In this document: piece by piece, positions 27,001 through 33,000 of the stretch
How positions within the stretch are numbered: position 1 is the first letter of the stretch
How the letters are laid out: each line of letters begins with the position of its first letter
Assembly: GCF_054482525.1 (NCBI RefSeq)
Contig: NZ_CM137006.1
Length of the DNA stretch: 64,000 nt
Reading direction: 5' to 3' (one strand)
Position numbers: made by a program

Positions 27001-30000
27001 TCTGGCGCGGCGACGGGAATCCATTGAAATCAAAATTACCGATGACAGAATCAGCAGCGTTCCCAGCCAGTCCGGTAATGTGAACGTGATCCCCAGCAAC
27101 AGCAAAGAGAGTAGCGCGCTACTTAATGGTTCTGCACAGCTCAAAATGCTGGCTTTTGGACCGCCAATTAATTGTGCTCCTTTCAGGTACAGGCTAAATG
27201 TCAGAGATGTACCAATGACCACCAAATAAAAAAACGCCAGAATCAAACTGCCGTTAACGACAAAGTTTGTTCCTTGTCTGGCATAAAAAGGCAACAGAAT
27301 CAGACCGCCGATCAGCATACTCCAGCCGACGACAGGCAACGTGCCATAGCGGGCAATCAGCGTTGAGGGATAGGTGGTATAGAATGCAGCAGCAAATGCC
27401 GAGGCAATGCCCCAGAATAACGCGGCAGGAGAGATCGATAATGACGTCGGATTACCGTGTGTCACCAATAAAAAAGTCCCGACCAGCGATGTCAAAATAG
27501 CGCAAAAAACCAGAATGCCCGGGCGCGATTTATGTACCAGTGAGAACCAGGCGACGATAATCGTCGGTGAGAGGAATTGCAGCACCGTTGCCGTGGCTGC
27601 GTTCGATTTTTCGATGGTTAGCAAAAAAGTGAGCTGTACGGTTAGCGCGCCAACCACGGAAAAAATCAGCAGACTAATGGCATCTTTGTGATTGTTAATA
27701 ATAGAAAAGATTTTATCGCCATGAACAAATGACAGCGTCAGCAGAATCAAACCGGCGAATATCAAACGCGTCATAGTCAAAAACTGCGACGACATCTGGC
27801 TTTGCTCCATGATGTATTGCGCGCAGACCCCTGAACTTCCCCACAACACGGCGGCAATCAGAACGTTCAGCATCCCCTTTCTGGTGGAACCCATTTTTCC
27901 CTCTGCATACTGTTTTGTCGTTTATGTATGCAGGCATGATAGCAAAAATGGCGAGGATGGCTCTGTTTGCGCCACGCCGATTTTTCTTAGCCCAGACTGG
28001 TGAGCTAAATATCTTTAATAAACAGCAGGCAAATCATCGCAATACCCAACATCCCTATCGCCAGCCAGAACAACGCGTGGTAGCTCCAGATTTCAACCAT
28101 AATTCCGTCAACAGAGCCGGCGATAATCCAGCCGACGCGTGAAGTGTTTGCATATAACGTTGTCGCAGAGCCTATTTTTTCAGGCATCAGGTCCTGAAAA
28201 TAAAGCATGCCGATACCACAGAGAATACCAAGGAAGATGGCATTAAGAATTTGCAATTCCAGCTCAACTGCCGGAGTCGTCGCCATGAGTACGCTGGCGT
28301 AAAAACACATTCCACTCACGATAGCAATGAGCATTAATAGCCGCTTGCCAATACGTTTCATGTAATAGCCTGCGATTAACATCATCGGAATTTCCAGACC
28401 GGCAGCAATACCAATCATTTCTCCAGCCAGTTTATCGGTTAGATGCAGTTCATCAATAATAAATAGCGGCATATTTATCATGTAGAGATTATTCGCCGCC
28501 CACATCATTGAACAGACCACAAAAAGTAGCCGTGTATCCCGCTTTCTATGGATGGAGGGTAAAATTTCTACGGGTTGGGTAACGACAGGAATATTTCTTT
28601 GTATTGATGGCAAAAACAACCAGACTATCAGCCCGCAAACAACAAATGCGATGGCTGCGGTGAGATACATCACTTTAAAACTAAATCCCATTGCCAGCTC
28701 ATAAGCGAGCGGTGGCCCGATAACCCAGGCAAGCGAGATCTGAGCACGTAAAAATGTACTGAACATGACCGTCTCACGGCCTGTTCTGTCGGCGTGTTCA
28801 CGGGCGAGGGCGAACATTTGCGGGTTTGCAGTGGAAGCAAAACTACTCAGAAGTACGCCCGTAGAGAGGAGAATGAAGTAGTTGCGATTCCACGCAAAAA
28901 GCGTGCAGGCCAGCACTCCAAATAAGCAACATAGCAGAATCAGTAATTTACGGTCGCCTTGTTTATCGGAGTGCCTTGCCAGAAATTGACTGACCAGAAT
29001 CCCCATAATAGCGCTACCGGTGAAGAAAAAACCTACCATTATAGGACGGGCTTTCAGTTCATCTGCGAGGAATATACTTAGGGTGGGAGTCTGGAGAGCG
29101 CCCGCAATACCAGTCAGAAAGGCGACAAGTAAAAATGCCGCGGCGGTGAGATCAAGTATTTTTGATGGAGTGGTAGCCGTTTTTTGCATTCTTCTGAATC
29201 ACCGGGCGACAAAATATAACTGAGTTACAAATAAGTACCAGTCGAATGAGTATTGTATTAAGAATTTTTGAGTATCGCTGATACAACCAGAAAACAATGC
29301 TAGCGCAATATTATAGGGCCAGCAATTGAGATTATTAGCAAAAGCATGTTAAGAATTAATCACCGAATTTATATATTAATTATAGTAAGGCAATGAGCTT
29401 TTTTTGATAGTAAAAATAAAACAAGTTGATTTGATATATTAAATGAACAAATTAATCTTGATGGCAGTCTGATTATTGGTGAAGTTTATAGGTCAGTTTT
29501 TTTTGCCAGCGGTTAAAGGAATAGAATAGTCGTATAAAAAAGGGTGTTCTGGAGCGTGTAAAACAACATCTGCACCTTAATGGCGATACAGTTGGCTGAG
29601 AGTCAGCAGGGGGCAAATCACCTGCAATTAAACACGGCGCATGCTGGTGCGAATATCGCGGATGCGTTCGAGGACAGAAGAACCGACAGGCGGATTCTTC
29701 AGTCGCTCATCGTCCATCATAAAACCTTTGATCAGGTATTCCTGAAGCCGATTGAATATTGAGCAGTAGAAAATATCTGGATTGACAGTATTACAAGGGG
29801 TTGGAGAACGTATGAAGAGGCATTTTGGCGGAAGATCACAGGAGTCGAACCTGCCCGGGACCGCTGGCGGCCCCAACTGGATTTGAAGTCCAGCCGCCTC
29901 ACCGGAGACGACGATCTTCCGCGCCTCGATTGCTACATGGAGGCGGGGCGCATTATAGCTACTTCCTTGAGTTTCTACATCCCCCAGATCAGTTTTTTCC

Positions 30001-33000
30001 GCCTAATACACGCGGCGTATTATCACGAAAGCATTATAGTTCACATAAAACCTATATTTTACAATGATATATGAGCGAAATTAACGCTACCACGATCACA
30101 TAAAACAAGAATCATAAATTAATAACCAGATATCGGAATATTCGCTCTCACAGGGATGGTTTACAAAATGCGTTATCGGTCTCAGCACCCCTATAGCATC
30201 AAGGAAAAGCAGATGAAGAGTGAAGTGTTGTCCGTTAAAGAGAAAATTGGTTATGGCATGGGAGACGCCGCCAGCCACATTATTTTCGATAACGTAATGT
30301 TATATATGATGTTCTTTTATACCGATATTTTTGGCATACCTGCCGGATTTGTCGGAACCATGTTTTTGGTCGCTCGTGCACTGGATGCGATTTCCGATCC
30401 TTGCATGGGGTTGTTGGCCGATCGAACGCGCTCTCGCTGGGGGAAATTTCGTCCGTGGGTACTGTTTGGCGCACTGCCATTTGGGATCGTCTGTGTACTG
30501 GCCTATAGCACGCCAGATCTCAGTATGAACGGAAAAATGATTTATGCAGCAATTACTTACACCCTACTTACCTTACTTTATACCGTCGTTAATATCCCTT
30601 ACTGCGCATTGGGTGGTGTAATCACCAATGACCCGACTCAGCGTATCTCGCTGCAATCGTGGCGTTTTGTGCTGGCGACCGCGGGAGGCATGCTCTCTAC
30701 TGTGCTGATGATGCCGCTGGTTAATTTAATTGGTGGTGATAATAAACCACTCGGTTTCCAGGGCGGTATCGCGGTCCTTTCCGTGGTGGCATTTATGATG
30801 CTGGCATTCTGTTTCTTCACCACTAAAGAACGCGTTGAAGCACCACCTACAACGACATCTATGCGGGAAGATTTACGTGATATCTGGCAAAACGACCAGT
30901 GGCGTATTGTCGGTTTCCTGACCATTTTCAATATCCTGGCGGTGTGCGTACGCGGTGGGGCGATGATGTATTACGTCACATGGATTTTGGGCACGCCGGA
31001 AGTGTTTGTCGCTTTTCTCACCACTTATTGCGTGGGTAACCTGATTGGTTCCGCACTGGCAAAACCGCTGACCGACTGGAAATGTAAAGTCACTATCTTC
31101 TGGTGGACGAACGCCCTGCTGGCAGTGATTAGCCTGGCGATGTTCTTTGTTCCTATGCAGGCCAGCATCACTATGTTTGTCTTCATCTTCGTGATTGGTG
31201 TGCTGCATCAACTGGTGACACCTATCCAGTGGGTAATGATGTCCGATACCGTCGATTACGGCGAGTGGTGCAATGGTAAACGCCTGACCGGGATCAGTTT
31301 TGCTGGCACGTTGTTTGTGCTCAAACTGGGGTTGGCCTTCGGCGGCGCTCTTATCGGCTGGATGCTGGCTTATGGCGGATATGATGCGGCAGAAAAAGCG
31401 CAGAACAGCGCCACGATTAGCATCATTATCGCGCTATTCACGATTGTTCCGGCGCTCTGTTATTTGCTGAGCGCGATTATCGCTAAACGCTATTACTCAC
31501 TCACGACGCACAATCTGAAAACCGTTATGGAACAGCTGGCCCAGGGCAAACGCCGTTGCCAGCAACAATTCACCTCTCAAGAAGTGCAGAATTAAGGAAC
31601 GGCAATGAAAATTAGCGACGGAAACTGGTTGATTCAACCTGGCCTCAATTTGATTCACCCGCTTCAGGTGTTCGAGGTTGAACAGCAGGGTAATGAAATG
31701 GTGGTCTATGCTGCCCCCCGTGATGTGCGTGAACGTACCTGGCAGCTTGACACGCCTTTATTTACGCTGCGCTTTTTCTCCCCACAGGAAGGTATTGTCG
31801 GTGTACGGATTGAGCATTTTCAGGGGGCGCTGAATAACGGCCCTCATTACCCGCTCAATATTTTGCAGGACGTGAAGGTCACAATCGAAAACACAGAACG
31901 TTACGCTGAGTTTAAAAGTGGCAACTTAAGCGCGCGTGTCAGTAAAGGTGAGTTCTGGTCACTGGATTTTCTGCGCAACGGCGAACGTATTACCGGTAGT
32001 CAGGTGAAAAATAATGGCTACGTGCAGGACACGAATAATCAACGAAATTATATGTTTGAGCGGCTGGATCTTGGCGTTGGCGAAACAGTTTACGGTCTGG
32101 GAGAGCGCTTTACTGCCCTGGTGCGCAATGGCCAGACGGTAGAGACCTGGAACCGGGACGGCGGCACAAGTACTGAACAGGCGTATAAAAATATCCCGTT
32201 CTATATGACTAACCGTGGTTATGGGGTACTGATCAATCATCCTCAATGCGTCTCTTTTGAAGTGGGATCGGAGAAAGTCTCCAAAGTGCAGTTCAGCGTT
32301 GAGAGTGAATATCTCGAATACTTTGTTATCGACGGCCCGACGCCGAAAGCGGTACTTGATCGTTATACCCGTTTTACTGGTCGTCCGGCGCTGCCGCCCG
32401 CGTGGTCCTTCGGCCTGTGGCTAACCACTTCATTTACCACCAACTACGACGAAGCGACGGTAAACAGCTTTATCGATGGTATGGCGGAACGCAATCTGCC
32501 ACTGCATGTTTTCCACTTTGACTGTTTCTGGATGAAAGCCTTCCAGTGGTGCGATTTTGAGTGGGACCCGCTGACTTTCCCGGACCCGGAAGGGATGATC
32601 CGCCGCCTGAAAGCGAAAGGGCTAAAAATCTGCGTCTGGATTAACCCCTATATCGGGCAAAAATCCCCTGTCTTTAAAGAGTTACAAGAGAAAGGCTATT
32701 TACTCAAACGCCCGGACGGTTCGTTATGGCAGTGGGATAAATGGCAGCCAGGTCTGGCGATTTATGACTTTACCAATCCGGATGCCTGCAAATGGTACGC
32801 CGACAAACTGAAAGGTCTGGTCGCGATGGGCGTTGATTGCTTTAAGACCGACTTTGGCGAACGTATTCCAACCGATGTTCAATGGTTTGACGGTTCCGAT
32901 CCGCAGAAAATGCATAACCATTATGCGTACATCTACAACGAACTGGTGTGGAACGTGCTCAAGGAAACCGTTGGCGAGGAAGAAGCCGTCTTGTTTGCTC

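Follow-up and report, generated by a model that had tools for sequence, protein, structure and literature searches.

Whether a selC gene with a short, island-free 3′ flank marks a site that was never occupied, or one whose former occupant has decayed, bears on how islands at this hot spot are delimited. The 3′ end of selC, the gene for tRNA-Sec, is a classic integration site for pathogenicity islands, and occupants of this site include PAI I-536, SHI-2, Salmonella pathogenicity island 3 (SPI-3), and the retronphage phiR73. The window considered here, a 64,000-nucleotide (nt) stretch of contig NZ_CM137006.1 (NCBI RefSeq assembly GCF_054482525.1), holds selC next to setC, together with a type III secretion system (T3SS)-related island nearby. 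An earlier note, made from the sequence alone, had described selC as intact with an unoccupied 3′ flank and the island as a separate, probably older acquisition. The locus is probably an ordinary K-12-type empty selC site, the spacer of which harbors a decayed rhuM element, and the eip/eilA/air island is an independent insertion (Table 1).

The integrity of selC is established by several lines of evidence. The sole tRNA gene detected by ARAGORN in the 64 kb encodes tRNA-SeC with a TCA anticodon and lies on the minus strand, and the same gene reaches 83.8 bits with the Rfam tRNA-Sec model RF01852 (gathering score 47) over model positions 1–91 of 91, so that both the full-length covariance-model match and the UCA anticodon place it in the tRNA-Sec family. 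Its sequence is identical to that of selC in K-12 ER3413, and likewise in an Escherichia coli strain with an alternative flank carrying full-length rhuM; with a strain of this alternative type, 29816–30300 shares 98.97% identity.

Since selC is encoded on the minus strand, its 3′ flank extends to setC. The intervening spacer (29190–29825) measures 636 bp and has a GC content of 37.7%, compared with 49.4% for the whole window; a short AT-rich spacer free of an integrase or island-sized insert, as the earlier note had put it, is indeed what is found. No second copy of the 26-nt selC 3′ end exists in the 64-kb window when up to 3 mismatches are allowed, and neither pattern searches nor blastn-short returned partial copies in the window. 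The best local alignment between the selC end and the flank scores 17, a value equalled in 195 of 300 shuffles and hence at chance level. As the selC 3′ end is single-copy in the window, the bacterial attachment site (attB) is empty. A selC-island integrase and a DUF4942 protein, used as tblastn queries, gave no spacer match at E≤1, and a tblastn search of the window with these two and with a CxxCxxCC protein from Escherichia sp. E1V33 returned a single chance match (E=0.45) within yicI. The RefSeq annotation of identical or near-identical strains records no integrase near selC. Direct and inverted repeats in 29100–30250 are limited to short AT-rich chance matches, Rfam at E≤1 over 29000–30300 returned tRNA-Sec alone, and promoter and terminator scans gave the same counts as shuffled sequence. 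In the setC-proximal part of the spacer, 29190–29618, searches for a coding relic, an RNA family, and a repeat detected none of these, and a distant blastn comparison with plasmids matched three E. coli records only, the size of which (1.0–4.9 Mb) points to chromosomal DNA; this AT-rich part shows no sign of mobile origin. Altogether, selC lacks an adjoining integrase, a direct repeat of the tRNA end, and extra DNA relative to the reference, and its 3′ end, present once, is, as predicted from sequence, a vacant attachment site for tyrosine integrases specific to selC. In island-bearing genomes, selC-side matches start at window 29814–29825 and setC-side matches end at 29846–29849, limits that would correspond to the classical duplicated attachment (att) region.

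Comparison with K-12 and with an occupied site confirms that the spacer is of the ordinary type. K-12 has the same order of yicL, setC, a 636-bp spacer, selC, and yicJ, and carries the same RefSeq-annotated rhuM pseudogene fragment; the two spacers are collinear at 98% column identity; the point differences between them number about 20, and two 1-nt indels compensate each other. The window belongs to an E. coli chromosome; the 1.2 kb around selC is 100% identical to E. coli PCN033, and the left half of the window is laid out as in E. coli SCU-102. In contrast, E. coli O157:H7 uses the tRNA and attachment region in question, the selC 3′ end, for a P4-like element associated with the locus of enterocyte effacement (LEE): in O157:H7 Z1723, the gene for a tyrosine integrase begins 162 bp from selC, with P4-like genes beyond it, whereas nothing is integrated in the window. 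Three of the substitutions relative to K-12 are clustered at window 29811–29815, 12–16 nt downstream of the tRNA end, where the window reads GTATGAAGAGG and K-12 GTCAGGAGAGG; this cluster lies at the edge of the region that some selC islands duplicate.

The frequency of this arrangement was determined in 5426 complete E. coli genomes. The contiguous order setC–spacer–selC–yicJ occurs in 2470 of them (about 45%), and a spacer of the window type, including the rhuM relic, in 3617; the difference implies that about 1150 genomes possess the spacer separated from selC. An example is provided by E. coli 38M23CPO015, where island DNA encoding a DUF4942 protein, an AIDA-like protein, and a GTPase is preceded by 24 nt copied from the selC 3′ end, and these in turn by the spacer. 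Judged by these population data, the att site appears usable for island capture, and the view that the empty site is available for future islands is borne out by the genomes in which this spacer is accompanied by an insert.

The claim of an unoccupied flank holds insofar as nothing is now integrated; the flank is not pristine, however, because the spacer contains a 43-codon RhuM fragment. With a 345-amino-acid (aa) RhuM protein as tblastn query, window 29747–29619 aligns to residues 121–171 with 75% identity (E=2e-17). The 39-aa translation of 29631–29747 scores 39.1 bits with Pfam PF13310 (Virulence_RhuM; gathering score 33.7) and covers profile positions 52–94 of 252. By its family score the fragment thus belongs to RhuM, but an intact full-length frame is lacking: of the 345 codons of intact RhuM, 43 (129 bp) are left, bearing an 8-codon deletion and an in-frame stop, which makes this a pseudogene with no predicted function. 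Between the fragment and selC lies a leader that is homologous to the sequence preceding the rhuM start codon elsewhere, with 76–79% identity to E. whittamii and to an E. coli locus and an alignment made by eye as further evidence. Moving away from selC, the spacer therefore consists of the rhuM leader, the internal stub, and the AT-rich part before setC, with leader and stub making up the selC-proximal 207 bp. rhuM is a gene of SPI-3, the Salmonella island integrated at selC, and the fragment in the window shares with intact rhuM genes both its place beside selC and its orientation. The relic is already recorded in the RefSeq annotation, which labels the spacer fragment a partial rhuM pseudogene in PCN033, SCU-102, and K-12; in the open-access literature, no E. 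coli-related paper was found that mentions rhuM alongside selC or setC. The earlier note had held that integrase fragments or att-like repeats in the spacer would betray a decayed island at selC. A search for att or direct-repeat remnants across 29190–29825 yielded nothing above shuffle level, and no integrase fragment was found; in spirit, the RhuM fragment nonetheless points to such a decayed island.

Sister lineages show rhuM in several states at the same position. An alternative flank with full-length rhuM is present in 844 of the 5426 E. coli genomes. Between selC and yicL it has, in this order, 52 nt, the complete rhuM gene, a degenerate selC-end copy, and an orphan gene of 165 aa; setC is absent from this flank type. 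In E. coli GN05652, the selC-end copy beside full-length rhuM (AGAGGCATTTTGGC----GATCACAGGAGTCG) matches in 28 of 32 positions, a score reached in 0 of 300 shuffles, and this flank served as the positive control for the direct-repeat test applied to the window. On this sequence evidence, rhuM in the full-rhuM lineage resides inside a putative att-bounded islet. The E. albertii type strain has, counted from selC, a truncated Phage_integrase gene, a DUF4942 gene, and rhuM. In E. whittamii and Escherichia sp. E1V33, selC is followed by a leader homologous to window 29749–29825, then by the rhuM start codon, 112–122 nt from selC, and 14 codons (MSDKRLT.SPTGEF), and finally by an unrelated convergent gene, the 404-aa product of which matches CxxCxxCC (PF03692) weakly. 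This gene, located 153–1367 nt from the selC 3′ end in E1V33, fills the selC–yicL gap instead of setC in both, and setC is absent from E1V33. Across Enterobacterales, 86 species loci possessing 300 nt or more of 3′ flank were surveyed (for E. coli, the representatives extend over 117–443 nt of this flank only), and 14 of them have a RhuM homologue within 3 kb of selC, always on the selC strand and with its N-terminus proximal. Homology between the Escherichia flank types resumes 30–65 nt upstream of the yicL start, which places setC and the AT-rich DNA in a variable segment and suggests that setC belongs to this segment rather than to the core backbone.

Because rhuM adjoins selC in integrase- or att-bounded elements of related lineages, it seems likely that an earlier rhuM-carrying element at selC decayed by deletion in the flank of the window. 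The distal part of rhuM, together with whatever separated rhuM from yicL, would then have been replaced by the AT-rich DNA and setC. Several observations weigh against this history. The spacer of the window is devoid of an integrase fragment or att repeat, so that the integrative origin of the relic would depend on the sister lineages. At the DNA level, the full-length rhuM genes alignable over the whole relic share just 72–75% identity with it, meaning that its parent allele has not been found, and searches with the AT-rich stretch 29190–29618 yielded no source for it. Finally, most rhuM loci outside Escherichia lack an att repeat within the 3–11 kb of flank examined, and rhuM could accordingly be an old resident neighbor of selC.

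This last point leads to the strongest competitor, according to which rhuM is an old, vertically inherited chromosomal neighbor of selC in Enterobacterales and the relic the outcome of ordinary gene loss. The constant orientation of rhuM within 3 kb of the selC 3′ end in the 14 species loci agrees with vertical inheritance, as does its occurrence in Escherichia, Citrobacter, Erwinia, Pantoea, Morganella, Hafnia, Kosakonia, Franconibacter, and Huaxiibacter; in eight such loci, moreover, the examined flank contains no second copy of the selC end. These flanks are short, however, and distal repeats could lie beyond them. A distribution of 14 in 86 is patchy, a significant direct repeat of the selC end encloses the gene in full-rhuM E. 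coli, rhuM follows an integrase gene and a DUF4942 gene in E. albertii, and Salmonella carries it within SPI-3 at selC. A resident rhuM is therefore considered unlikely. That the flank represents a pristine, never-occupied ancestral site, as its K-12-collinear spacer and the absence of an integrase, an att-like repeat, or an island-sized insert might suggest, is hardly credible in view of a RhuM fragment exceeding the Pfam gathering score, a 129-bp match for which non-homology is very unlikely at E=2e-17, an intact and apparently att-bounded rhuM that occupies this position in another 844 E. coli genomes, and a rhuM gene behind an integrase in E. albertii.

If decay of a rhuM-carrying element is accepted for the window, a broader reading can be proposed, the chances of which appear evenly balanced: the whole selC–yicL interval of Escherichia might constitute the overwritten remains of a rhuM-led selC element, the cargo of which has been swapped at least three times. 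The swapped cargos would be setC with the AT-rich DNA in the K-12 type, the 165-aa orphan in the 844 full-rhuM genomes, and the 404-aa CxxCxxCC gene in E. whittamii and E1V33. Were this true, setC, usually called a backbone gene, would itself be island cargo, and the 129-bp rhuM stub would be a shared fossil of a replacement that occurred before two thirds of present-day E. coli genomes spread. The window as such is an ordinary K-12-type selC locus, and the finding, although real, is ordinary; a standard empty selC site beside a published eip/eilA/air locus matters little. Its sole mildly new aspect is that the K-12-type "empty" selC flank may itself be a fossil of a rhuM-carrying element, from which it would follow that setC may be cargo rather than backbone. 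A note of caution also arises for the short "empty" tRNA flanks that are used as ancestral references, K-12 included, as these can be decayed islands; this is relevant to the definition of island boundaries at selC and to the history of this hot spot.

The T3SS-related island was said to lie between nepI and yicS without tRNA or integrase, about 4 kb from selC, and boundary comparison and annotation agree on both counts. It comprises 18,634 bp, and its right edge is situated 4.18 kb from the selC 3′ end. Relative to two island-free genomes, homology stops at 7014 and resumes at 25649, in the yicS stop codon, such that the island replaces a 48-bp stretch between the stop codons of the convergent genes nepI and yicS. 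Flanking repeats, tRNA genes, integrases, and transposases are neither present nor annotated at the island. It is thus an independent insertion without mobility genes and has no mechanistic link to selC. The junction falls within the last nepI codons (window 7000–7014), where NepI ends in KVKMK* in the window and in KVKMKKS* in island-free genomes. The segment from eilA to eicA has a GC content of 37.5%. The eip cluster is found in 746 of the 5426 genomes, mostly at 90–95% identity; relative to strain ST648, the eilA–eicA segment is 94.5% identical and the selC region 97.4%. Such a pattern of divergence would fit long residence or fast evolution, and the "probably older" acquisition assumed at the outset is plausible.

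The arrangement has been published. Fox et al. 2020 (PMC7058095), in summarizing Ren et al. 2004 and Sheikh et al. 2006, describes two insertions at the "selC locus": selC-A, the phage-related genes of which are bounded by selC on one side and by a 21-bp repeat of its 3′ end on the other, and selC-B, with the eip genes, eicA, eilA, and eaeX, the two being separated by the backbone genes setC, yicL, and nlpA. The same paper reports selC-A as "largely absent" in sequence type 69 (ST69) isolates positive for ETT2, the second type III secretion system of E. coli, and Chaudhuri et al. 2010 (PMC2808357) lists eip as "inserted next to selC". The window contains eicA, eipB, eipD, eilA, and a large inverse autotransporter with immunoglobulin (Ig) repeats, with setC, yicL, and nlpA between island and selC, a gene set that RefSeq annotates in SCU-102 and PCN033 for the stretch 100% identical to the window. 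In content and position, selC-B is exactly as published for enteroaggregative E. coli (EAEC) 042 and ST69. EAEC 042 carries selC-A between selC and the 21-bp selC-end repeat, whereas neither insert nor repeat occurs at selC in the window, which in this respect resembles most ST69 isolates. The window is accordingly selC-A-negative and selC-B-positive; it departs from the published organization in a frameshifted nlpA and in an adhesin gene that forms an intact open reading frame (ORF) of 3705 codons. The wording "selC locus" and "inserted next to selC", along with the variability of the selC–yicL segment itself, might suggest that a single former selC island was later divided, leaving the eip/eilA/air island and the selC flank as its parts, but this is very improbable, as yicL–nlpA–yicS–nepI are contiguous and in the same order in island-free genomes, just 48 bp are replaced between two stop codons, the empty site is near-identical (two differences) between two genomes of different selC-flank types, and no further copy of the selC end exists anywhere in the 64 kb.

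Table 1. Features of the window around selC and the eip/eilA/air island (positions in the 64,000-nt window; a dot denotes no strand)
Feature	Position	Strand	Basis
nepI	5830-7014	+	Annotation of matching strains
eip/eilA/iatC (air, eaeX) island, published selC-B	7015-25648	.	Boundary comparison, gene content, literature
iatC (air/eaeX)	7216-18333	+	Annotation of matching strains
eilA (HilA-like regulator)	18383-20080	-	Annotation of matching strains
SipD-like (eipD)	20283-21632	-	Annotation of matching strains
Hypothetical	21676-22806	-	Annotation of matching strains
SctE/SipB-like (eipB)	22819-24600	-	Annotation of matching strains
SycD-like chaperone (eicA)	24848-25345	-	Annotation of matching strains
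yicS	25647-25940	-	Annotation of matching strains
nlpA, frameshifted	26150-26967	+	Annotation of matching strains
yicL, first gene common to all Escherichia flank types examined	26971-27894	-	Flank comparisons
setC, major facilitator superfamily (MFS) sugar efflux transporter	28005-29189	-	Pfam MFS_1, annotation
AT-rich (33.8% GC) region upstream of setC	29190-29618	.	Composition; relic, RNA and repeat searches
rhuM pseudogene fragment, codons 121-171 of 345	29619-29747	-	tblastn, Pfam PF13310, RefSeq
selC-proximal leader, homologous to sequence preceding the rhuM start codon in other Escherichia	29749-29825	-	Alignments
Putative region duplicated upon island integration (selC 3′ end and up to 11 nt downstream)	29814-29849	.	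Island-bearing genomes
selC, tRNA-Sec (anticodon TCA)	29826-29920	-	ARAGORN, Rfam RF01852, identity to K-12
Intergenic region between selC and yicJ (5′ of selC), conserved backbone	29921-30212	.	Comparison with full-rhuM-type strain
yicJ	30213-31595	+	Annotation of matching strains

Some further observations concern individual genes of the island and its surroundings. The intact 3705-codon iatC/air/eaeX ORF contains many Ig-like repeats of about 291 bp, and the corresponding region in the RefSeq record of PCN033 is about 2 kb longer and annotated as two coding sequences; repeat-number variation or an assembly difference would account for this discrepancy in length. In NZ_AP043644.1, only 154 bp of the eilA–eicA query, at the end of eicA, were matched, and the features annotated there are the chaperone gene and iatC, which suggests a deletion variant of the eip island without eipB–eilA. 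The lipoprotein-28 gene nlpA is frameshifted in the annotation of PCN033 and SCU-102 and intact in GN05652 and 38M23CPO015. Two other variable spots lie near selC. At window ~4896–5735, between yicN and nepI, a RelE/ParE toxin and a helix-turn-helix (HTH) antitoxin form a pair on an insertion of 840 bp, which stands in place of about 41 bp in 38M23CPO015 and is present in GN05652 too; it makes up a second small islet of variation close to selC. The other is a 7-kb cluster between yicI and yicH in E. coli GN05652 (16879–23822 of that locus), absent from the window, which encodes a BglG-type antiterminator, fructose-type IIA/IIB/IIC components of the phosphotransferase system (PTS), two aldolases, a ROK protein, and a lyxose isomerase.

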